Positions 5,312-16,186 of a DNA stretch of 32,000 nt are shown here, in pieces. Origin of the DNA: Candidatus Formimonas warabiya (GTDB lineage Bacteria; Bacillota; Dehalobacteriia; Dehalobacteriales; Dehalobacteriaceae); assembly GCF_002777255.1 (NCBI RefSeq), contig NZ_CP017634.1, positions 600,903 through 632,902 on the forward strand, read 5' to 3'. Position numbers and translations under genes: made by a program. Below the pieces are notes generated by a model that saw only the letters and a program-made list of their open reading frames with translations, had not been told where the DNA came from and searched no databases. The stretch's first letter is position 1, and every line of letters starts with the position of its first letter.

Positions 5312-6691
5312 ATGATAAAAAACAAATGCGGAGTTGTCCTAATCCTGGTTCTGGTCCTCGGTATGGGGGTATTTACCGCCGGCTGCGGCAATACTCAGGC
5401 TGCCAGGGAAGATAATAATCCTAATTCCCTGACCATTGCGGTTGTGACCAAAGATATGTACCTGGATACGGCAGTAAAAAAGTTTGAGGAACTTCATCCC
5501 GGCGTCAGTGTGGAAGTGAAAGAATACACCTCCAGTACTTCGGAAAAAGGTGAAGGTGTCAGGGCGGCAGATCCCGGCGATATTGAAAAATATGTCACGA
5601 CTATGAATACCCAGCTCATGTCCGGCCAGGGCAGCGATATAATTTTATTAAACAACCTGCCCTATCAGACCTATGCGGATAAGAATCTTTTAGTTGACTT
5701 GGGGGGGCTGATGCAGTCGGATCAAAGCTTCGACAGGGGCAAATACTACCAAAATATTTTCAAGGCTTTAGAATATAAAGATAAACTATATGGGCTGCCG
5801 GTTAATATCGGTATCGATATGATTGCCGCCGATAGAACCTTACTGGCTGATTCCCAGGTGCAAATCGACGATAGCAACTGGGATTGGAACGATTTTGTCA
5901 AGACGGCGGAAAAGGTCATTAACGACAAGCAAAACGGGGGAACCCAGGAGATGTATGCCTTGGCCGGGATGGATGAAAAAAGACTGATTATGACTCTGGT
6001 TAAAGAAAACTATGACAACCTGGTCGATCCGGAGAAGGAAACAGCCAATTTTACCGGCCAGGAATTTCTTGATTTACTTTCCTTAAGTAAATATCTGATT
6101 GACCACAAACTGGTTAATACGGATACAGCCCAGACCAACATTATGGACATGGCCTCCCGGGGTAAACTTGTTTTTAATTTCACTTCTCTTAGTGGGTTTT
6201 GGGACCTGCAAGTGGCCAAGGCGATTTTCAGCGAGGGTGTTCAGCTTTTAAAGCCCCCCGGAAACGTGTTCTTTTCCACGGACTCTATGTATGGAATCAG
6301 CAGTAAATCAGCCAATCAAGAACTGGCCTGGGAATTTTTAAAATTTTTGGTCTCTGATGATATGATGACTCAGGGAGGAATGCCGATTAATAAGAGTGTG
6401 CTTCCCCAGATTGCCCAGAATTTCACCCAGGCTATCCAAAAAAGGGGCGGGAAAATGATGATCAAGGACGACGGCATTCCAGCTCAACCTATAACACTGC
6501 AACCCCCCACCCAGGAGGATGTGGATTACATGGAAAACCTGCTGAGTCAAGCGAAGGTCTACATCGGAACGGACCAGAAGATTATTTCCATTGTTCAGGA
6601 GGAAACCGCGGCCTTCCTTACAGGACAGAAGACAGCGGAAACGACTGCCCAATTGATTCAGGACAGGGTGAGCACATACTTAAATGAATAA
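5312..6691 (+). CDS. Extracellular solute-binding lipoprotein (family 1 SBP) of the ABC importer
   Basis: Signal peptide with lipobox (LGMGVFTAGCGN), roughly 460 aa, last gene of the same-strand cluster. ATG 5312 is preferred over TTG 5309 because of RBS spacing. Confidence 0.8.
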   Translation: MIKNKCGVVLILVLVLGMGVFTAGCGNTQAAREDNNPNSLTIAVVTKDMYLDTAVKKFEELHPGVSVEVKEYTSSTSEKGEGVRAADPGDIEKYVTTMNTQLMSGQGSDIILLNNLPYQTYADKNLLVDLGGLMQSDQSFDRGKYYQNIFKALEYKDKLYGLPVNIGIDMIAADRTLLADSQVQIDDSNWDWNDFVKTAEKVINDKQNGGTQEMYALAGMDEKRLIMTLVKENYDNLVDPEKETANFTGQEFLDLLSLSKYLIDHKLVNTDTAQTNIMDMASRGKLVFNFTSLSGFWDLQVAKAIFSEGVQLLKPPGNVFFSTDSMYGISSKSANQELAWEFLKFLVSDDMMTQGGMPINKSVLPQIAQNFTQAIQKRGGKMMIKDDGIPAQPITLQPPTQEDVDYMENLLSQAKVYIGTDQKIISIVQEETAAFLTGQKTAETTAQLIQDRVSTYLNE

Positions 6692-6783: not shown

Positions 6784-6828
6784 GTCGAATCGGACAGGCT
6801 TTTAACATTCCTGAAAGGAGGCATGGAC

Positions 6829-7656
6829 ATGAAAAGGAAAAGAATTACTCAATTGTTTCCATTCTTACTACCGATCCGCAGGACACAAAGAAAATTATTC
6901 TTCTATGCCAAGATGTGCTTTGACCGGAACCACTATGCAAAAGCAAAGGATCCAGAGTTTTTGCCTTTTTGCATATATGAAACCAAGTCGAAGCTTCTAA
7001 ATGACAATACGGGCTTTGATATAAAATATCAGGAAAACAAGGTGTTTAATCTGCGCCTTGCCGCGGAGCCTGTAAATGGCATATTAATATGCCCTGGTGA
7101 AACATTTTCATTTTGGCAGCGTGTGAGATATGCCGAGAAAAATGAGCGGTATAAGGACGGTTTGTGCATGGTAAATGGCGAATTGGTCACGGTTCCGGGA
7201 GGCGGTTTGTGTCATCTCAGCAATTTTCTGTTCTGGCTGTTTCTGCATACTCCGCTCACCATTGTAGAACGGCATCCTCATCAGATTAAGGATTTTCCTT
7301 CTCCTGATGAGGATGAACCGGATGGTGTGGACGCTACGGTCCGCGAAGGGTGGTTGGATTTAAAGGTCAAAAACAACACCAATCTTACCTTCCAAATTAA
7401 GATATCCCTCAATGGACCTTACATTTATGGCTCTATTTTTATAGATCAGGCCATAGGGCATCGTTACGGGATTATTAATCGCGAAAAGAGCTATTTCAAA
7501 AAAGAAGGGAAAACCTTTGAGCGGGTTTCTGTCTGTCAGCAGAAGATAGACATCAAATCCAAACAAGTTATTTCAGAAAACCTGCTTTATACGGACGTAT
7601 ATGAAGTCGGGTATCCGCTTCCGGAAGAAACTGCTATCGCAGAAGTAAAGAAGTGA
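6829..7656 (+). CDS. vanW: VanW-family protein
   Basis: VanW-type blocks are present (PGETFSFWQRV, GGGLCHLSNFLFW) and the gene lies directly upstream of vanH-ligase-vanX. ATG 6829 sits 7 nt after AAAGGAGG; the ORF-track ATG 6823 is too close to the RBS. Confidence 0.85.
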   Translation: MKRKRITQLFPFLLPIRRTQRKLFFYAKMCFDRNHYAKAKDPEFLPFCIYETKSKLLNDNTGFDIKYQENKVFNLRLAAEPVNGILICPGETFSFWQRVRYAEKNERYKDGLCMVNGELVTVPGGGLCHLSNFLFWLFLHTPLTIVERHPHQIKDFPSPDEDEPDGVDATVREGWLDLKVKNNTNLTFQIKISLNGPYIYGSIFIDQAIGHRYGIINREKSYFKKEGKTFERVSVCQQKIDIKSKQVISENLLYTDVYEVGYPLPEETAIAEVKK

Positions 7657-7661
7657 TTGTT

Positions 7662-7736
7662 ATGAAAAAAAAAGTTGCCGTTTTATTCGGCGGATGCTTT
7701 ACAGAGTTTGAATTTTACTTGTTATATAATTTATGA
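7662..7736 (+). pseudogene. 24-codon remnant of the 5' end of a D-Ala-D-X ligase (ddl/van ligase) gene
   Basis: An ATG 5 nt after the vanW stop encodes MKKKVAVLFGGCFTEFEFYLLYNL*. This matches the conserved ligase N-terminus K(I/V)AV(L/I)FGG.S.E(H/Y)EVS and the intact ligase in this window (KIAIIFGGCSEEHPIS). Confidence 0.55.
7720..7730 (+). promoter_or_regulatory. Candidate extended -10 promoter element upstream of vanH
   Basis: TGtTATATAAT lies about 25 nt upstream of the vanH ATG, inside the ligase remnant. No good -35 element is present. Confidence 0.35.
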
Positions 7737-7753
7737 AAGGATAAATCTAAATC

Positions 7754-8722
7754 ATGGCAAAAATGGGAATTTCAATTTATGGATGCGGGCAGGACGAGGC
7801 CGTTTTGTTCCGAGAGATGGCGCCTCGCTTTGGCGTTATGCCAACTATCACAGATGCAGCGGTATCTGAAGTTAACATTGAACTGGCATTTGGAAATCGA
7901 TGCATCAGCGTCGGTCATAAAACTCAAATCACAAATTCCATTCTTCTTGCGCTCAGCCAAGCCGGTGTAAAGTATATCTCCACAAGAAGTATTGGATATA
8001 ACCATATTAATGTAAAATGCGCGGAGAGCGTTGGCATTTCCGTTGAAAATGTCGCTTATTCGCCCGATAGCGTGGCTGATTACACATTAATGCTGATGCT
8101 GATGGCGGTGCGAAATGCAAAATCCATTATCAGACGTGCAGATATTCATGATTTCAGATTGAATGATGTACGCGGGAAAGAATTACGCGATATGACCATT
8201 GGGGTAATTGGAACAGGACGCATTGGGGCAGCAGTTATGGACAGGCTGCGGGGCTTTGGCTGCCACATATTAGCCTATGACCATCGTCCCCAAACCTCTG
8301 CCGATTACGTTCCTCTTGATGAATTGTTACAGCAGAGCGATATTGTAACGCTCCATACACCACTTAACGCGGATACAAACCATCTTTTTAATCGTCAACG
8401 TATCGAGCAGATGAAGCACGGCGCGTTTATTATCAATACTGGACGCGGTTCACTTCTTGATACCGAGGCTCTTATTTCCGCGTTGGAAAGCGGTAAACTA
8501 GGCGGTGCAGCGTTGGATGTCCTCGAAGGAGAGGAAGGAGTATTCTACTTTGACTACAGAAACAAACCCATTGAAAGCAAACTGTTGTTGCGGTTACAAA
8601 AATTACCGAATGTGCTTATTACTCCGCACACCGCCTATTACACAGAACACACCTTGAGCGATACTGTTGAAAATACTATTATCAATTGCCTGAAATTTGA
8701 AAGGAGAAAGCAGCATGGATAG
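7754..8722 (+). CDS. vanH: D-specific 2-hydroxyacid (D-lactate) dehydrogenase, VanH type
   Basis: Close by-eye colinearity with VanH/VanHB, for example AYSPDSVADYTLMLMLMA, GVIGTGRIGAAV (NAD fold), GGAALDVLEGEE and ITPHTAYYTE. The stop overlaps the ligase start by 8 nt. Confidence 0.9.
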   Translation: MAKMGISIYGCGQDEAVLFREMAPRFGVMPTITDAAVSEVNIELAFGNRCISVGHKTQITNSILLALSQAGVKYISTRSIGYNHINVKCAESVGISVENVAYSPDSVADYTLMLMLMAVRNAKSIIRRADIHDFRLNDVRGKELRDMTIGVIGTGRIGAAVMDRLRGFGCHILAYDHRPQTSADYVPLDELLQQSDIVTLHTPLNADTNHLFNRQRIEQMKHGAFIINTGRGSLLDTEALISALESGKLGGAALDVLEGEEGVFYFDYRNKPIESKLLLRLQKLPNVLITPHTAYYTEHTLSDTVENTIINCLKFERRKQHG

Positions 8723-9755
8723 GTTGAAAATCGCAATTATATTCGGAGGCTGTTCCGAAGAACATCCCATCTCCGTTAAATCTGCGCAAGAGGTCGCAAA
8801 AAACCTTGATATCGAAAAGTATGAACCGTTCTATATCGGGATTACGAAAAATGGTGTTTGGAAGCTTTGTCACTGCCCTGACGCAAATTGGGAAAACGGC
8901 AGTTGCCGGAGGGCTATGCTGTCACCGGACAGAAGCGTACACGGATTGCTTGTTCTGGAGCAGGGACAATACAAAACGATCCGTTTGGATATGGTGTTTC
9001 CCGTTCTGCATGGCAAACTTGGCGAGGATGGTGCGATGCAAGGTTTGTTGGAGCTTTCCGGCATCCCCTATGTAGGCTGCGATGTCCAAAGTTCTGCTCT
9101 GTGTATGGACAAATCCCTTGCTTATATCGTCGCCAGAAACGCGGGAATTGCTACGCCAAATTTCTGGACTGTCACGGCGAACGAGAATATTGATGCCGAC
9201 CGGCTTACTTATCCCGTTTTTGTAAAGCCGGCCCGTTCGGGTTCATCTTTCGGCGTCAGTAAGGTATGTCGAAAAGAAGAATTGCTGAGTGCAGTGGAAA
9301 CCGCAAGACAGTATGACTCGAAGGTGTTGATTGAAGAGGCTGTCGTCGGCAGCGAGGTAGGATGTGCGATATTAGGGAACGATATGGATTTGATTGCAGG
9401 CGAGGTAGATCGAATTTGTCTATCTCATGGTTTTTTCAGAATCCATCAGGAGAATAAGCCTGAAAACGGTTCCGAAAACTCAACAGTAATCGTTCCCGCT
9501 GACATTTCGGCAGAGGCGCGCTTACTCGTTCAGGAGACAGCAAAAGCGGTATATCGCGCCTTGGGTTGCAGGGGACTTTCGCGGGTGGATATGTTCCTGA
9601 AGGAAGATGGAAAAGTAATACTTAACGAGGTTAATACTTTGCCCGGTATGACCTCATACAGCCGTTATCCGAGAATGATGGCAGCCGCAGGGTTAACCTT
9701 TGCCGAAGTGATCGAGCGGATTGTGTCGTTGACATGGAAAGGAAAAAGACGATGA
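8715..9755 (+). CDS. VanA/VanB-type D-alanine--D-lactate ligase
   Basis: ATG 8715 follows AAAGGAG. The N-terminus KIAIIFGGCSEEHPISVKSA, then YPVFVKPARSGSSFGV, and the omega-loop region FFRIHQENKPENGSENSTVIVPA match the VanA/B pattern (IHQE..PEKGSEN) rather than the Tyr-containing Ddl loop. The C-terminus reads NEVNTLPGMTSYSRYPRMM. Confidence 0.9.
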   Translation: MDRLKIAIIFGGCSEEHPISVKSAQEVAKNLDIEKYEPFYIGITKNGVWKLCHCPDANWENGSCRRAMLSPDRSVHGLLVLEQGQYKTIRLDMVFPVLHGKLGEDGAMQGLLELSGIPYVGCDVQSSALCMDKSLAYIVARNAGIATPNFWTVTANENIDADRLTYPVFVKPARSGSSFGVSKVCRKEELLSAVETARQYDSKVLIEEAVVGSEVGCAILGNDMDLIAGEVDRICLSHGFFRIHQENKPENGSENSTVIVPADISAEARLLVQETAKAVYRALGCRGLSRVDMFLKEDGKVILNEVNTLPGMTSYSRYPRMMAAAGLTFAEVIERIVSLTWKGKRR

Positions 9756-10360
9756 AAAATGATTTTGTCTTTGTAGACGAGTTTGTATCCGGAATACGTT
9801 GGGATGCTAAATACGCCACATGGGATAATTTTACCGGAAAACCGGTGGACGGATATGCAGCAAATCGAATTGTCGGTACGAGAGCTTTGTGCAGAGCCCT
9901 GGAAAAAGCACGAGAAAACGCCGCATCCTTTGGCTTTGGCTTGCTTCTTTGGGATGGTTATCGCCCTCAATGCGCCGTAGATTGTTTTCTGCGCTGGTCA
10001 AAACAGCCGGAAGATGGCCGGACGAAACCAAAACACTATCCGAATATTGACAGATCCGAGATAGTTGAAAAAGGATATGTGTCCGCTAAGTCGGGACACA
10101 GTCGGGGCAGCGCAATTGACTTAACGCTTTATTATTTAGCTACCGGTACACTTGTTCCAATGGGCGGTGACTTTGATTTGATGGATTCAGTCTCACATCA
10201 TGGAGCAAAAGGAATCACGCAAGTCGAAGCGAGAAACCGTCAATACCTTTGTTCTATCATGGAGGCCTGCGGTTTTATTTCATACGATTGCGAGTGGTGG
10301 CATTACATGCTGAAACACGAACCTTATCCAAACACTTATTTTGATTTTCCCATCAAATAG
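9752..10360 (+). CDS. vanX: D-Ala-D-Ala dipeptidase VanX
   Basis: ATGA start/stop overlap with the ligase. The sequence VRWDAKYATWDNFTGKPVDGY, the Zn-site motifs SGHSRGSAIDL and EWWHY, and LLLWDGYRP are present. Confidence 0.9.
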   Translation: MKNDFVFVDEFVSGIRWDAKYATWDNFTGKPVDGYAANRIVGTRALCRALEKARENAASFGFGLLLWDGYRPQCAVDCFLRWSKQPEDGRTKPKHYPNIDRSEIVEKGYVSAKSGHSRGSAIDLTLYYLATGTLVPMGGDFDLMDSVSHHGAKGITQVEARNRQYLCSIMEACGFISYDCEWWHYMLKHEPYPNTYFDFPIK

Positions 10361-10458: not shown

Positions 10459-10485
10459 CATCTTTTTTTACCTAACTTCTCAGAA
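10459..10485 (+). repeat. Left copy of a 27-bp imperfect direct repeat (CATCTTTTTTNACCTAACTTNTCANAA)
   Basis: catctttttttacctaacttctcagaa matches 11985-12011 at 24 of 27 positions by hand alignment. Each copy is followed by a hairpin. Confidence 0.5.
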
Positions 10486-10491
10486 AATCTG

Positions 10492-10534
10492 CCACCTATT
10501 GATAAAAAGGATTTTATCAATAGGTGGTTTCTGT
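10492..10534 (+). terminator. Rho-independent terminator downstream of vanX
   Basis: Perfect 16-bp stem CCACCTATTGATAAAA / TTTTATCAATAGGTGG with a 4-nt loop, followed by TTTCTGTTTT. Confidence 0.8.
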
Positions 10535-10705
10535 TTTGAGAGGTGTTTTGCGACTGCACTTTTACTATATCACTCCAGAGGAAATTAATTGTGTATGATA
10601 GTACTGACGTTTTTTGGAAACTTTCACTTAATCCCTATGATTTTACATATTATATATTATCAAAGGATACTTCAAAATCACAGACGGTAATGGGAGATGA
10701 AATAA

Positions 10706-11272
10706 ATGACAGATTTTAAAAGTAATTATACTCCATGTATTTTTCCAAACTCAATTACACAGGTTGCCGATATGCCCTATGCCTTGTATCTATCGCTTCA
10801 AGGAAAATATTTTGTAGGGTATGCACCTGACGTGCAATTCGTTAAAGGTAAATACGGATGGGCAGGACTAGTAAATCCTGATCATTCCTGCGTAAATCTT
10901 CATGTCTATGTATGGACAGTTACCAATTTCGGCGAATCTCCATTAAGTGCAGAAATATGGTTTAATACCAATACTCCAGAAAACTCAGTAATATCTGAGT
11001 TTACATCGCCAGCTAACACCGCTATCTGTCCTCTGCCACGGCCAAAGGTAGGAATACTTCAAGCAAATAATGTCAGCGGTCATCCGCAATGCGGTAATAG
11101 AATATCTGTCAAAAAAGTTCTTTCTGAGGTTACAATCGTCGGTGAAGAAGTCGGCAGATTTATCTTTCCGCCAGGAGGATCTTTTAGTGTTTTATTATCC
11201 AATGCCGAAGCATCAAGTCAATCAGGAATAGCAAATCTTGCTTTCGGATGGTGGGAAGAAGAAATAAAGTAG
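10706..11272 (+). CDS. Uncharacterised 188-aa protein, paralog A of a tandem pair
   Basis: GGGAG RBS and a clean ORF. No signal peptide or TM segment. It shares conserved blocks with the next gene (MPYxLYLSLQGKYF, WAGLxNP, VNLHxY, EVTIxxEEVGxFIFPPGGSF, WWEEE). Confidence 0.7.
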   Translation: MTDFKSNYTPCIFPNSITQVADMPYALYLSLQGKYFVGYAPDVQFVKGKYGWAGLVNPDHSCVNLHVYVWTVTNFGESPLSAEIWFNTNTPENSVISEFTSPANTAICPLPRPKVGILQANNVSGHPQCGNRISVKKVLSEVTIVGEEVGRFIFPPGGSFSVLLSNAEASSQSGIANLAFGWWEEEIK

Positions 11273-11296
11273 TTTATAAAAGGAGGTATTATTAAA

Positions 11297-11863
11297 ATGA
11301 AAAGCTGCAAGAAAAATGCTATACTTCTGACCAATCCGATAACCCAAATTGCCGGCATGCCCTATTCCCTATACCTGTCACTCCAGGGGAAATATTTTTC
11401 AGGCTTTACGGGAAAATTGGCGTTTGGAAATGGTAACAATGCCTGGGCCGGTTTATTGAATCCAGTCAATTCCAGAGTCAATTTGCACCTATATTTCTGG
11501 GAGGTATCCAATATAGGTCCATCACCTGTTCGGGCACGAATATATTTCAATTCCTACCCTCCTGGACAAAGAACAATAGTGAAAACGGTATTTCAAGGTA
11601 ACACTACGCTATGTCCGCCACCAAAACCGAGAATAAGACTATATCAGGCATCAGATGTAGCCGGTGAGCCAGAGGGAGGGGTCAGAGTATTTGTAAGAAG
11701 AGCTTTACCTGAAGTTACAATCGGTGATGAAGAGGTGGGCAAATTCATATTTCCACCTGGAGGGTCCTTTGTAATTTTCTTATCTAATCCGGAGACACCG
11801 GATGAACCTGCAAGTGCAACCCTTGGTTTTTCATGGTGGGAAGAAGAGGTAAATTGCCAATAA
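11297..11863 (+). CDS. Uncharacterised 188-aa protein, paralog B of a tandem pair
   Basis: AGGAGG RBS. A hand count gives 88 identical residues out of 172 gaplessly aligned positions against paralog A. Confidence 0.7.
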   Translation: MKSCKKNAILLTNPITQIAGMPYSLYLSLQGKYFSGFTGKLAFGNGNNAWAGLLNPVNSRVNLHLYFWEVSNIGPSPVRARIYFNSYPPGQRTIVKTVFQGNTTLCPPPKPRIRLYQASDVAGEPEGGVRVFVRRALPEVTIGDEEVGKFIFPPGGSFVIFLSNPETPDEPASATLGFSWWEEEVNCQ

Positions 11864-11984
11864 AAAAGGTGAGCATAAAATAGTAGGGCATTTTATTCAG
11901 TTTTAGGTACTGGGAAAAAACTTACCGGTTCCCATTGTCCATATAATATACTAATATTGATAAAAAATAGGCTAGATAGGTTGA

Positions 11985-12011
11985 CATCTTTTTTGACCTA
12001 ACTTTTCATAA
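11985..12011 (+). repeat. Right copy of the 27-bp imperfect direct repeat
   Basis: catcttttttgacctaacttttcataa matches 10459-10485 at 24 of 27 positions. It is followed by an imperfect hairpin (AAGAAGTCGA...TGGCTTCTT) and TGTATTT. Confidence 0.5.
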
Positions 12012-12310: not shown

Positions 12311-12333
12311 CTGCCATAAAATGGCGGTTTTTT
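12311..12333 (+). terminator. Orphan rho-independent terminator inside the 636-bp intergenic region
   Basis: CTGCCAT-aaa-ATGGCGG (7 bp including one G-U pair) is followed by TTTTTT. No ORF ends nearby, and structured sequence lies just upstream. Confidence 0.55.
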
Positions 12334-12499: not shown

Positions 12500-13711
12500 A
12501 TGAAAATACCAGGTAATGTTGATTTAACAATAGATTTCTGCGGCTTGAAATTACCCAATCCATTTATACTAGCCTCCGCTCCGCCAACTGCTGGTGCATC
12601 CCGGATTAAACGTGCTTTTGCACTTGGATGGGGTGGAGCAGTTACTAAAACCATCCCTCCTGACAGCATGGAAATAACTGATGTTTCGCCACGGTTAAAG
12701 GCTTTGCGTAACGATAACGGATCAATTTACGGCATGGAGAACATTGAGCTACTAAGCCCCAAACCCATTTCCTTATGGCTGGATGAAATCAGAGATATTA
12801 AGCAATGTTTTCCTCAAAACTTGTTGATAGCTAGTTTTATGGCGGAAGTGCGTAAAGAAAGATGGCAGAATATGGCAATGTCTCTCCAGAAAGCAGGAGC
12901 CGACGCCCTGGAACTGAATTTTTCCTGTCCGCACGGCATGCCGGAAAAAGGCCTTGGTTCCGCCATTGGCCAGGACGAGGAACTAATTAGTCTTATCACA
13001 TCCTGGGTTAAATCAGTGGCATCCGTTCCGGTAATTGTCAAGCTTTCTCCAAATGTTACCGATATAGGACTCATGGCCCTGGCTGCGGAAAAAGGTGGAG
13101 CAGATGGTTTAGCAGCCATTAATACAGTACAATGTCTCGCAGGGATAGATCTGGACACATTTGAACCGCAGCCATCTGTTAACGGTGTTACTACTTTTGG
13201 TGGTCTATCAGGGCCGGCAGTAAAGCCTATCGGACTGCGTTGTGTGGCGCAAATAGCTCAGAGATCCAGACTACCCATCTCTGGGATAGGCGGTATCCGC
13301 AGCTGGAAAGAGGCGGTTGAGTATATCCTGGTAGGAGCTAGTAATGTACAGATGTGCACCGAGGTAATGTTGAATGGTTATGGAATTATTAAAGGGTTGA
13401 CCGAAGGGTTGACCCAATACCTTAAAAGCAAGGGAATTGATAAAGTAGATCAACTGAGAGCTAAGGCTCTCTCAAAGCTGGTGAATCACGGGTCTCTTAA
13501 CCGTAGCTACCGTGTGTGGCCGGATTTAAATAAAGGGACCTGTAATGCCTGCGGACGTTGTGTCGTCGCCTGTCGTGATGCCGGGAGCAATGCCCTGCAA
13601 ATTACTGATTCTAAGCTCACCTTAGATATTGAGGCCTGCGACGGATGCTCCCTGTGCATAAATATTTGTCCTTCTCTGAAACAGAGTGATCCACGGGGAC
13701 GATGCAATTAA
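12500..13711 (+). CDS. preA: Dihydroorotate-dehydrogenase-like flavoprotein with C-terminal 2x[4Fe-4S] domain (PreA-type dihydropyrimidine dehydrogenase subunit)
   Basis: The N-terminus DFCGLKLPNPFILASAPP...GWGGAVTKTI resembles PreA/DPD domain IV. NFSCPHGMPE marks the active-site Cys loop, and the C-terminus carries CNACGRCVVAC and CDGCSLCINICP ferredoxin motifs. Confidence 0.8.
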   Translation: MKIPGNVDLTIDFCGLKLPNPFILASAPPTAGASRIKRAFALGWGGAVTKTIPPDSMEITDVSPRLKALRNDNGSIYGMENIELLSPKPISLWLDEIRDIKQCFPQNLLIASFMAEVRKERWQNMAMSLQKAGADALELNFSCPHGMPEKGLGSAIGQDEELISLITSWVKSVASVPVIVKLSPNVTDIGLMALAAEKGGADGLAAINTVQCLAGIDLDTFEPQPSVNGVTTFGGLSGPAVKPIGLRCVAQIAQRSRLPISGIGGIRSWKEAVEYILVGASNVQMCTEVMLNGYGIIKGLTEGLTQYLKSKGIDKVDQLRAKALSKLVNHGSLNRSYRVWPDLNKGTCNACGRCVVACRDAGSNALQITDSKLTLDIEACDGCSLCINICPSLKQSDPRGRCN

Positions 13712-13930: not shown

Positions 13931-16186
13931 ATGAAAAGAGTTTGGAGATTGATTATTTCATTGTCGCTGGCCTTCGTCATGACATTTGGCATGCAGCCGG
14001 GAGGTATCACTGCCATTGCAGCCGACAGCGAGCCCGGTCCCGGCGACATCGTCATCATCTATACAAATGACGTGCATTGTGGGGTAGATCAGGTCGAGGG
14101 CAATGATGGGACCGTCACAAACATCGGCTATGCCGGCGTTGCGGCTTATAAAGCAGAAATGGAGAAACAAGTAGGCGAGAATGACGTCACTCTGGTTGAT
14201 GCAGGCGATGCCTTACAAGGGGATGCCATCGGTACGCTTTCAAAGGGGCAGTACCTGGTCGACATTATGAATCAGGTCGGCTATGACATCTTTGTACCCG
14301 GAAACCATGAATTCGATTACGGCATGGATCGTATGCAGAAGTTGATGAAGAGTCTTGATGCTAAGGTGATTTCCAGCAACTTTACCAATTTAAAAACCAA
14401 AAAGCTTGTTTACGAACCTTATACCATCGTCACCTATGGCGAGGGTGCTGATGCGACGAAAGTTGCTTTTGTCGGTATTACGACACCTGAATCTTTCACA
14501 AAGTCCACACCCGCATATTTCCAGGATGACAGCGGGGAATTTATCTATGGCTTCAAAGAAGGGGATAACGGAAAAGAACTGTATGACGCCGTTCAGAACG
14601 CGGTGAACGCGGCTAAAAAGGAAGGTGCGGCTTATATCATCGCCCTCGGTCATTTAGGCATTGACGCGCAGTCCAGTCCGTGGCGTTCTACTGACGTTAT
14701 CAAAAATACCACTGGAATCGATGCGTTCATCGACGCACACTCCCACAGCACCGTTGAGAGTGATATTGTGGAGAATAAGGACGGTGAAGACGTTATTCTT
14801 ACACAGACCGGAACCAAACTGGCCAGCATCGGACGCATGGTGATAGAGGCTGACGATGGCAGGATTACCACTGATCTGATCACAGGCTACGCAAATCAGG
14901 ATGCGGCGACCGCCGGCTTTATTGCGAATATAGAAAAAGATTTTGCAGATGATTTGGCCGCAAAGGTGGGCAAAACCGAGGTGGCGCTGACGGTCAACGA
15001 TCCGGCGACGAACAAACGCATGGTGCGCGCTGGGGAGACCAACCTGGGTGACCTGTGCGCTGACGCCTATCGCTATGTTTTGGGTAATGGCAAGACCGGG
15101 GCGGAGAGCGGCCCGGCTGATATAGCCTTTGTGAACGGCGGTAACGTTCGGGCCAATATCGATGCAGGCGATATCACTTTCGGTGAAGTCATCGCTGTGC
15201 ATCCATTTAATAACGTTGGCTGCGTCGTGAAAGCGACGGGTCAGGAAATCCTGGATGCATTGGAAATGGCTGCGCGCGTGGCTCCGGTGGAGAACGGCGG
15301 ATTTTTACAGGTTTCCGGCCTCACTTATACCATTGATACTTCCGTGGCATCTACGGTAGTGGTCGATGACAAAAAGAATTTTGTAGAGGTCACAGGTGCC
15401 CGCCGCGTTAAGGACGTTAAGGTTGGGGGCGAAGCCATCGATGTAAGCAAAACCTATACATTGGCTTCGTATAACTACATGATGCTGGACGGAGGCGACG
15501 GAATCAACATGTTCCGCGATAACGAAGTCGTTGTGCAGCCTGTTTTGCTGGACAATCAGGTTCTCATCAGCTATATCCAGGACTATCTGGACGGCATAGT
15601 CGGCGATCAGTATTCCGATCCTTACGGACAAGGCCGTATTCAGGTACAAGCCGTTAGAACCTTCTCCGATACAGTCAACCACTGGGCATCCGAGGCGATT
15701 GACTTTGTGATAGAAAGAGGGCTTTTCTCCGGTACGGCAGCAGCCAAATTTTCGCCGGATGAACCTATGACCCGCGGCATGCTGGTTGCCGTACTTTACC
15801 GTTATGAGGGCATGCCACAGGGTGCGACACAGACCTTTGCTGATGTCCAGCCAGAAAAATACTACGCCGCTGCGGTTTCGTGGGCTGCACAGAATAAGAT
15901 TGTTGAGGGCATGAACAACGGCTTTTTGCCGGAGAACAACATCAGCCGCGAGCAGCTTGTCGCGATCCTTTACCGTTATGCAGCGCCGGAACAGACAGCA
16001 GGCAGTCTTGACAAATTCCCCGACGGCGCAAAGGTATCCTCCTGGGCAACAGATGCGATGACTTGGGCAGTCGGCAGCGGACTGCTCTTAGGTGACACCA
16101 ACGGGAATCTCAATCCTGCAGGAAACGCAACACGTGCCGAGGTTGCGACTATTCTGGAGCATTTTATTAAGAACGCGGAGAAATAG
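13931..16186 (+). CDS. Secreted bifunctional metallophosphatase / 5'-nucleotidase with three C-terminal SLH cell-wall anchoring domains
   Basis: Signal peptide (AFVMTFGMQPGGITAIAA). Calcineurin-like motifs YTNDVHCG, DAGDALQG and GNHEFD are present, followed by a 5'-nucleotidase C-domain. Three SLH repeats run from about nt 15659 (FSDTVNHWASEAIDF..., FADVQPEKYYAAAVSWA..., FPDGAKVSSWATDAMTWA...). Confidence 0.85.
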   Translation: MKRVWRLIISLSLAFVMTFGMQPGGITAIAADSEPGPGDIVIIYTNDVHCGVDQVEGNDGTVTNIGYAGVAAYKAEMEKQVGENDVTLVDAGDALQGDAIGTLSKGQYLVDIMNQVGYDIFVPGNHEFDYGMDRMQKLMKSLDAKVISSNFTNLKTKKLVYEPYTIVTYGEGADATKVAFVGITTPESFTKSTPAYFQDDSGEFIYGFKEGDNGKELYDAVQNAVNAAKKEGAAYIIALGHLGIDAQSSPWRSTDVIKNTTGIDAFIDAHSHSTVESDIVENKDGEDVILTQTGTKLASIGRMVIEADDGRITTDLITGYANQDAATAGFIANIEKDFADDLAAKVGKTEVALTVNDPATNKRMVRAGETNLGDLCADAYRYVLGNGKTGAESGPADIAFVNGGNVRANIDAGDITFGEVIAVHPFNNVGCVVKATGQEILDALEMAARVAPVENGGFLQVSGLTYTIDTSVASTVVVDDKKNFVEVTGARRVKDVKVGGEAIDVSKTYTLASYNYMMLDGGDGINMFRDNEVVVQPVLLDNQVLISYIQDYLDGIVGDQYSDPYGQGRIQVQAVRTFSDTVNHWASEAIDFVIERGLFSGTAAAKFSPDEPMTRGMLVAVLYRYEGMPQGATQTFADVQPEKYYAAAVSWAAQNKIVEGMNNGFLPENNISREQLVAILYRYAAPEQTAGSLDKFPDGAKVSSWATDAMTWAVGSGLLLGDTNGNLNPAGNATRAEVATILEHFIKNAEK

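Follow-up and report, generated by a model that had tools for sequence, protein, structure and literature searches.

The genome of Candidatus Formimonas warabiya carries, on contig NZ_CP017634.1, two adjacent genes of equal length a short distance downstream of a glycopeptide-resistance (van) cluster, and the question raised by this locus is what the paired products do and whether they have anything to do with the resistance genes. The stretch of DNA analysed here, referred to as the window, is 32,000 nucleotides long, and the two genes are called A and B in their order of transcription. An earlier reading of the DNA by itself (the original prediction) had described them as a tandem pair of paralogues of unknown function. 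It is virtually certain that A and B are real genes, that they belong to the protein family DUF6143 and that they form one bicistronic, autonomous unit unrelated to the van genes. Furthermore, both are probably expressed from a sigma-K-type promoter, which would place their synthesis at a late stage in the mother cell. The sigma factor sigma-K directs RNA polymerase there towards the end of endospore formation, the stage at which proteins of the coat, the exosporium and appendages are produced. The two proteins are considered here as candidate structural components of the spore surface.

Both open reading frames (ORFs) are intact on the forward strand with 188 codons each, and both are preceded by a strong ribosome-binding site (GGGAG for A, GGAGG for B), as originally described. 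An earlier hand count of 88 identities in 172 residues is closely matched by BLASTP, which aligned A with B at 89 of 176 identical positions (51%) with 67% positives, no gaps and an E-value of 1e-66. The conserved blocks once read from the pair by eye (MPYxLYLSLQGKYF, WAGLxNP, VNLHxYxW, CPxPxP, EVTIxxEEVGxFIFPPGGSF and WWEEE) were all recovered, and they fall on invariant or nearly invariant columns when 30 close homologues are aligned. That alignment contains 35 invariant and 27 nearly invariant columns, and many of these lie in loops (NPxxS, NTxxxPxPxP, PPGGS and WxEE). No catalytic or nucleotide-binding motif was recognised in the pair, as before, and no His, Asp or Cys is invariant in the 30-sequence alignment. 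The description of both proteins as soluble and free of transmembrane segments also stands, as the highest Kyte–Doolittle mean over 19 residues is 0.84 in A and 0.92 in B and neither contains a hydrophobic segment. Only 24 nt separate A from B, leaving no room for a second promoter, which implies that the two genes are co-transcribed.

Pfam assigns both proteins to PF19640 (DUF6143), with an E-value of 5.7e-47 (160.4 bits) for A and 6.8e-43 (147.2 bits) for B against a gathering cut-off of 27 bits, and both span profile positions 13–180 of 182. The pair are thus new members of a catalogued but uncharacterised family, which NCBI annotation names 'DUF6143 family protein', and they are plain members that show no difference from it. 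The original label of unknown function therefore needs qualifying, since a family assignment already exists, but it holds in that the family is still uncharacterised; correspondingly, the pair does not map to any well-characterised family. The family can be called catalogued yet uncharacterised because a Pfam entry exists for which no function, structure or publication was found. An NCBIfam search with A and B returned nothing, and a sequence profile search of the PDB with DUF6143 gave no match.

A word-indexed search of 5.8 billion proteins returned 363 homologues; those listed are all 166–223 aa long with a single PF19640 domain, and their names are without exception 'hypothetical' or 'DUF6143 family protein'. 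The family is small: when 1.84 billion representatives were searched exhaustively with HMMER (E <= 1e-3), 237 clusters at 50% identity were recovered, none exceeding 263 aa in length or combined with a further domain. DUF6143 is nevertheless strongly conserved, with 41–49% identity to members of Bacilli, Negativicutes and Desulfotomaculia. Among its carriers are Clostridium sporogenes and C. botulinum Group I, two acetogens of industrial use (C. ljungdahlii and C. autoethanogenum; ADK14460.1 / AGY77678.1, with an adjacent paralogue) and many Bacillota from the environment. The host titles of 80 genome loci name Clostridium, Papillibacter, Haloimpatiens, Tissierellaceae, Lacrimispora, Hungatella, Anaerocolumna, Sedimentibacter, Caproiciproducens, Epulonipiscium, Paenibacillaceae, Salipaludibacillus, Paenisporosarcina, Dendrosporobacter, Phosphitispora, Pelotomaculum, Desulfotomaculaceae and Syntrophomonadaceae, which we take to be endospore-forming lineages from several classes of Bacillota.

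The evidence for a link to sporulation comes from the promoter region. A survey took in, for each locus, the 140 nt that precede its first DUF6143 gene, with the upstream regions of other ORFs from the same loci as controls. The pattern that recurs is tTCAC followed, after 16–17 nt, by CATAtaATA. In its strict form, AC-N16-17-CATANNNTA, it is found in 33 of 79 upstream regions, where 0.6 are expected from shuffled sequences (maximum 3 in 200 shuffles). After removal of redundancy, the strict pattern is present in 31 of 74 regions versus 13 of 606 controls (odds ratio 33, Fisher p 4e-23) and a relaxed pattern in 50 of 74 versus 36 of 606 (p 4e-34). Alternative start calls of DUF6143 ORFs had been removed from the 606 controls and are still present in a larger set of 667. 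Extending the search to 450 nt recovered the strict pattern in 38 of 78 loci, compared with 2.1% of random windows. Similarly, an unbiased k-mer enrichment ranked CATAT, TTCAC, ACATA, TACATA, TTCACC and CATATAAT as its top words. The non-DUF6143 ORFs that carry the pattern are a mixed set (cupin, YetF/DUF421, Staygreen, patatin, subtilase and FtsX).

The sigma-K consensus has AC at −35 and a CATATAAT-like −10, while that of sigma-E has ATA at −35 (Saujet et al., PMC3789822). The element conserved in DUF6143 loci agrees with this definition and, judged by its sequence, is of the sigma-K type. Patterns for sigma-E, sigma-F and sigma-G occur in none of the 79 upstream regions, and sigma-A-like sites are not enriched (9 of 74, 12%, versus 97 of 667 controls, 15%). 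At the position of the G in the sigma-A hexamer TTGACA, 32 of 53 aligned sites have C and two have G. In the two loci whose proteins are most similar to A and B (L006 and L007, 78–88% identical), the spacer measures 16 and 17 nt, respectively; the canonical length is 16–17 nt and that of the window is 18 nt. The window and its relatives become similar at the −35 element and stay so through the 5′ untranslated region (UTR); further upstream, their sequences are unrelated.

A housekeeping-type site, TTGGAA-16-TATGAT, had originally been named as a candidate for the pair's own promoter. The site is present, but its −10 is lost in L006 and L007, and the element that is conserved is the overlapping sigma-K-type one; TTGGAA-16-TATGAT is probably not the functional promoter. 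This region holds 11 sigma-70-like sites, only slightly more than the 7.0 +/- 2.1 expected. Within the 5′ UTR, a block, GGATACTTCAATATCA, is shared with the upstream regions of the closest relatives (L006–L012) and may be a regulatory element or leader structure. A second sigma-K-type match in the window lies in the gap 3′ of B; only ORFs of 47 and 58 codons follow it, it is not conserved in L006, and its occurrence is within chance.

In Lacrimispora and Hungatella loci, DUF6143 is the second gene, behind an ORF of ~100 aa that is rich in proline and has its own sigma-K-type box, AC-N16-CATATAATA, upstream. This proline-rich ORF (MPPFPPYGNPPGGP...FWFFPIQIWR...) has no Pfam match and was seen 5′ of DUF6143 in L035, L037, L041, L043, L045 and L048 (at ~5630–5940), which derive from Lacrimispora, Hungatella and metagenome-assembled genomes (MAGs) labelled Paenibacillaceae. 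It may encode a second uncharacterised spore protein that is co-expressed with DUF6143.

Copy number was counted with hmmsearch over the window and 86 fetched loci (87 sources). Two adjacent copies occur in 25 of the 87 and a single copy in 62; the tandem pair, real here, is not general for the family, most loci being single-copy. A neighbour-joining tree separates the first genes from the second genes, with each group in a clade of its own, from which it follows that the A–B pair arose by a single old duplication and that the order of A before B has since been fixed. The pair is kept in the lineage of the window and in part of Clostridium sensu stricto, and each clade has been retained across many species. 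Such long retention of both copies suggests that A and B have distinct or cooperative roles. One locus (L032) shows an independent DUF6143 duplication, and the single-copy genes of the C. sporogenes, C. subterminale and Haloimpatiens group adjoin the B clade in the tree. Charge complementarity between an acidic A (pI 5.3) and a basic B (pI 8.8) was also considered and was dropped, as the pattern is inconsistent across 20 pairs.

AlphaFold2 models built from family alignments have the same topology for A and B, with mean predicted local distance difference test (pLDDT) scores of 88.6 and 90.8, respectively, and a predicted template-modelling (TM) score of 0.83 each. Each model begins with a disordered N-terminal arm of ~20 residues (pLDDT <70), followed by a short helix that sits on the invariant PYxLYLSL motif and by 10–11 β-strands; the earlier guess of a β-rich fold agrees well with this layout. 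From the models, it appears that the DUF6143 core is a compact, all-β, jelly-roll-like domain of ~165 residues. Foldseek comparison of both models with the PDB gave nothing at E <= 1e-3. The weak matches were to jelly-roll proteins, all of low TM-score: viral capsids, concanavalin A, cupins, nucleoplasmin-like domains and the Ena2A fibre 9i0y, the last with an E-value of 0.019, a probability of 0.98 and a TM-score of 0.54 on the target, which is not significant.

Comparison with predicted viral structures gave 67 matches at E <= 1e-3, the best with TM-scores of 0.65–0.71 and E-values of ~1e-7. All of these are uncharacterised phage proteins of 160–200 aa or domains of larger ones. The top match is ORF57 of Pantoea phage LIMEzero, a member of phrog_5335, for which PHROGs and Pfam annotation give no function; proteins of this type occur in 107 phage records. 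In Citrobacter and Klebsiella siphophages, the phrog_5335 domain forms the C-terminal part of a ~280-aa protein (L088 3647–4495; L090 3659–4489) whose gene directly follows those for the prohead protease, a capsid-decoration (or -stabilising) protein and the major capsid protein; in the Citrobacter phage, a gene for a head fibre lies ahead of it as well. This gene order hints that phrog_5335 is a phage head-surface protein. It resembles DUF6143 in fold (Foldseek E 1e-7 to 1e-6, TM-score up to 0.71) and in a C-terminal β-hairpin with W-[FW]-E-[EDG] at its end, but the two have no detectable sequence homology and the phage hosts are Gram-negative bacteria. An hhalign comparison of DUF6143 with the phage family gave a probability of 2.3%, so common ancestry is not shown. 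Likewise, a PHROGs search gave no match better than E 0.36 and none to phrog_5335, and tblastn of DUF6143 proteins against 50,697 phage records found nothing.

A survey of cysteines covered 173 family members that bear both end motifs. The arm in front of PYxLY measures 23 residues in the median, and in 155 of the 173 (90%) it carries one or more Cys, at varying positions. In the core, the NTxxCPxP position is Cys in 126 of 169 members, and 40 members, mostly of the B type, have a Cys after WWEE. A comparable arrangement is found in the spore appendages of Bacillus, where the paralogues Ena1A and Ena1B each join a jellyroll core to a flexible N-terminal connector of 15 residues; disulfides link the cysteines of this connector to those in the cores of adjacent subunits (bioRxiv 10.1101/2020.08.21.260141). 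Like A and B, Ena1A and Ena1B (DUF3992; S- and L-ENA) are small, single-domain proteins with a β-sandwich or jellyroll fold (a predicted one in A and B), encoded as tandem paralogues in one operon (39% identity, compared with 51% for A and B). Both systems combine a flexible, Cys-bearing N-terminal extension with core cysteines, and both occur in spore formers. They differ in that the DUF6143 domain is ~50 residues larger and its arm lacks a Cys-Cys motif. A Pfam scan of A and B gave no match to DUF3992 (E <= 1) and none to DUF4183; the resemblance to Ena, as far as the comparison goes, is an analogy of mechanism and not family membership.

F-ENA (DUF4183) fibres, found in Bacilli and Clostridia, follow a related principle based on an N-terminal hook (PMC12357932). 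Their subunits are, like DUF6143, small β-sheet proteins of a former 'DUF' family; they carry an N-terminal docking peptide, are widespread in spore-forming Bacillota and assemble on the spore surface (PMC12357932). In contrast to DUF6143, F-ENA subunits are of ~10 kDa and are linked to genes for collagen-like anchors, none of which was seen beside DUF6143 genes. A broader comparison is with coat and exosporium genes of the sigma-K regulon of C. difficile (cotA, cotE and bclA1-3), which share with DUF6143 a −35 AC and a −10 CATAnnnTA (PMC3789822). These genes are scattered and their products lack a signal peptide, as is the case for DUF6143; the latter differs in having no sequence similarity to any named coat protein. 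Scattered, context-free genes are typical of coat genes. Two cases of neighbouring genes, though anecdotal, also point to sporulation: in Clostridium sp. JN-1 a cotJA-cotJB-Mn-catalase operon lies 2 kb from a DUF6143 pair, and the sole plasmid-borne DUF6143 gene among 72,556 plasmids, on the 490-kb Bacillus albus megaplasmid pBC1, adjoins a gene for an 'exosporium leader peptide-containing protein' (L091, 6980–7516 and 8297–8935). The pBC1 copy is divergent, without the MPY motif and without an arm Cys.

It is proposed that A and B are co-transcribed from their own sigma-K-type promoter. Their products carry no export signal, which would have them made in the mother-cell cytoplasm and then laid on the surface of the developing spore. 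There, DUF6143 proteins would serve as structural parts of the coat, exosporium or an appendage; we put the chance of such a structural role at close to even, if slightly below. A and B may co-assemble, and the N-terminal arm of one subunit could be disulfide-linked to its neighbour, as in Bacillus Ena fibres. We infer sigma-K dependence, spore location, assembly of A with B and disulfide cross-linking from computational results. An Ena-like, disulfide-locked co-polymer of A and B, an idea drawn by analogy, is improbable as a specific form of this proposal.

Several observations weigh against a structural role at the spore surface. The window's own spacer is one nucleotide longer than the canonical maximum, and the window contains three matches to AC-N16-18-CATANNNTA, about the chance level, so the promoter case depends on what is conserved among orthologues. 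In about one third of loci, not even a relaxed match is present in the 140 nt surveyed, and CATAtaATA holds a TAnnnT core, such that some recognition by sigma-A would be possible. Many of the 35 invariant residues are in loops and might just as well belong to a ligand-binding or catalytic site. No significant PDB match exists for either model, the likeness to Ena2A being weak (E 0.019), and the acidic A and basic B of the window are not a consistent feature of the 20 tandem pairs. Three host labels lie outside the spore-forming Bacillota: Alloiococcus sp. CFN-8 (3.9 Mb), Pseudomonas sp. ISL-84 and a cyanobacterial MAG (L028, L030 and L010). The proteins from these loci cluster with Bacillota members, which suggests mislabelling or bin contamination. 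Lastly, the literature searched, including papers on the spore surface of C. sporogenes and C. botulinum, makes no mention of DUF6143 or of CLOSPO_03614, the C. sporogenes ATCC 15579 gene, and reports neither expression nor proteomic nor genetic evidence for a member of the family. Correspondingly, the link to sporulation, the predicted fold and the Cys-bearing arm, all of them computational inferences, are absent from that literature.

The coordinates of the unit and its surroundings are given in Table 1. A hairpin with a 17-bp stem provides the strong upstream terminator that had been noted at the outset; it closes the vanX transcription unit and insulates the module. Downstream, the long AT-rich gap is confirmed at 636 nt and 35% GC, after which a PreA-like gene begins. 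A Pfam scan of the 137 nearest upstream and downstream ORFs from 70-odd loci found 156 different families, none of them recurring more than four times, and thus no conserved neighbourhood; no van-type family recurs among these neighbours. Flanking genes differ in every lineage examined, including L006 and L007, and in L006, the closest relative, similarity fades ~45 nt past the stop codon of B. These variable flanks, together with similarity that starts at the promoter −35, bear out the proposal of an autonomous two-gene module and indicate that adjacency to the van genes, named in the original prediction, is coincidental. The pair should not be annotated within the van cluster. Annotation scans of the window's ORFs found no sporulation gene.

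The module is also bracketed by a 27-nt direct repeat, the copies of which are 24/27 identical, with similarity reaching ~45 nt and a hairpin 3′ of each. The repeat has two matches in the window compared with none expected from shuffles, and none of the 86 other loci contains it; it may stem from an insertion event or from duplication of a terminator region.

Table 1. Coordinates of the gene pair, its expression signals and surrounding features in the window.
Feature	Position	Strand	Remarks
DUF6143 paralogue A	10706–11272	+	188 aa, 20.6 kDa, pI 5.3; 'gene-1' clade
DUF6143 paralogue B	11297–11863	+	188 aa, 20.7 kDa, pI 8.8; 'gene-2' clade
Ribosome-binding site of A	10692–10696	+	GGGAG, 9 nt 5′ of ATG; kept in relatives
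Ribosome-binding site of B	11282–11286	+	GGAGG, 10 nt 5′ of ATG
Sigma-K-type promoter (putative)	10623–10654	+	TTCAC 10623–10627 (CAC 10625–10627, −35 AC 10626–10627), 18-nt spacer, CATATTATA 10646–10654; −10 box 51 nt before ATG of A
Sigma-A-like site of the original prediction	10614–10641	+	TTGGAA-16-TATGAT; 9/12 sigma-70-like match
5′ UTR	10655–10705		Contains block GGATACTTCAATATCA
Second sigma-K-type match	11920–11948	+	ACTTACCGGTTCCCATTGTCCATATAATA, spacer 18
vanW	6823–7656	+	
D-2-hydroxyacid dehydrogenase (vanH-like)	7754–8722	+	
D-Ala-D-X ligase	8697–9755	+	Start overlaps dehydrogenase gene
VanX dipeptidase	9734–10360	+	Start overlaps ligase gene
Direct repeat, left copy	10459–10485	+	CATCTTTTTTTACCTAACTTCTCAGAA, 27 nt
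Hairpin terminator	10491–10528	+	17-bp stem + T-run
Direct repeat, right copy	11985–12011	+	27 nt
Terminator-like hairpin	12311–12327		In leader of PreA-like gene
PreA-like dehydrogenase	12500–13711		
5′-Nucleotidase/metallophosphoesterase	13931–16186		751 aa
ORF of 332 aa	26563–27561		

Other features of the window are recorded as side observations. The van cluster (6823–10360) has no adjacent VanRS genes and ends at the hairpin terminator. The PreA-like gene encodes a dihydroorotate/dihydropyrimidine dehydrogenase with a C-terminal 4Fe-4S dicluster, and its long leader holds a terminator-like hairpin at which no Rfam family was found; an Rfam scan of the whole window returned only a tRNA. 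Beyond it lies a gene for a 5′-nucleotidase/metallophosphoesterase with three C-terminal SLH domains, which imply a surface enzyme anchored to the S-layer. A 332-aa ORF with a borderline match to SIR2_2 (E 2.6e-5) is followed by a 126-aa ORF without a match and by a PHP-domain protein, a group that might be defence-related.

Four other explanations of the pair have been considered against a structural role at the spore surface. Sigma-K-type expression in the mother cell would be equally compatible with non-structural products, such as an enzyme, a lectin-like binder or an assembly factor acting on spore polysaccharide, cortex or coat components, for which the promoter evidence is identical. 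The invariant and nearly invariant columns, many of which are loop positions, suggest a conserved site, and the weak PDB neighbours include a lectin (concanavalin A) and cupin enzymes. However, those lectin and cupin matches are not significant (TM-scores of 0.14–0.31), no Pfam, NCBIfam or PDB sequence match links A or B to any enzyme, and the family has neither an invariant His, Asp or Cys nor a catalytic or nucleotide-binding motif. A conserved, flexible arm that bears Cys is also hard to fit with a soluble enzyme, and a non-structural product is rather unlikely overall. An accessory two-gene module driven by a housekeeping sigma-A promoter, with a vegetative function unrelated to sporulation, would account for the TTGGAA-16-TATGAT site, for the overlap of the sigma-K −10 consensus with the TAnnnT core and for the window's non-canonical 18-nt spacer. 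It fits poorly with the loss of the TATGAT −10 even in L006 and L007, with the lack of enrichment of sigma-A-like sites (12% versus 15%), with the strong preference for CA before TAnnnTA and for C in place of the −35 G, and with hosts that by name belong to spore-forming lineages; we give it a low probability.

The two remaining explanations draw on the fold and on the location of the pair. A phage-derived or defence-related cassette, for instance a domesticated virion surface protein or a prophage remnant, is suggested by the best fold neighbours being phage proteins (Foldseek E 1e-7, TM-score 0.65–0.71), by the position of the similarly folded siphophage domain right after major capsid and head-fibre or decoration genes, and by the direct repeat around the module. 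Fold similarity is not accompanied by any link at the sequence level in tblastn, PHROGs or hhalign (2.3%), though, and a search of the pair with PADLOC models gave no match. Moreover, the window contains no phage or integrase genes, none recur among the neighbours of homologues, and DUF6143 is a vertically conserved chromosomal gene across classes of Bacillota, which together make this origin very improbable. Membership in the vanW-vanH-ligase-vanX cluster, as an accessory part of glycopeptide resistance, would explain why the pair is found 346 nt downstream of vanX on the same strand. The 17-bp-stem terminator lies in between, though, the pair has its own promoter, linkage of DUF6143 to van genes is seen in none of 85 other distinct loci, and the closest relatives, L006 and L007, have other flanks; a van-related role has next to no likelihood.

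To our knowledge, clostridial spore coats, exosporia and appendages consist largely of proteins without a counterpart in B. subtilis, and many of their components are unidentified. The conserved sigma-K-type promoter makes DUF6143 a testable candidate for one of them. A more far-reaching and unlikely possibility is that DUF6143 proteins build an as yet undiscovered assembly on the spore surface (a fibre, an appendage or a two-dimensional lattice). Where the tandem pair is present, A and B would co-polymerise in it and the Cys arms would lock the subunits by disulfide bonds, as in Ena fibres. Such an assembly would occur widely among Clostridia, and also in some Bacilli and Negativicutes, would be absent from the usual model organisms, and would share its fold, and perhaps an ancestor, with siphophage head-block proteins. 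If a place on the spore surface proves true, DUF6143 would be a new structural family for spore biology, a possible scaffold for spore display or target for detection, and one more example of a cellular surface layer that makes use of a virus-like jelly-roll fold.

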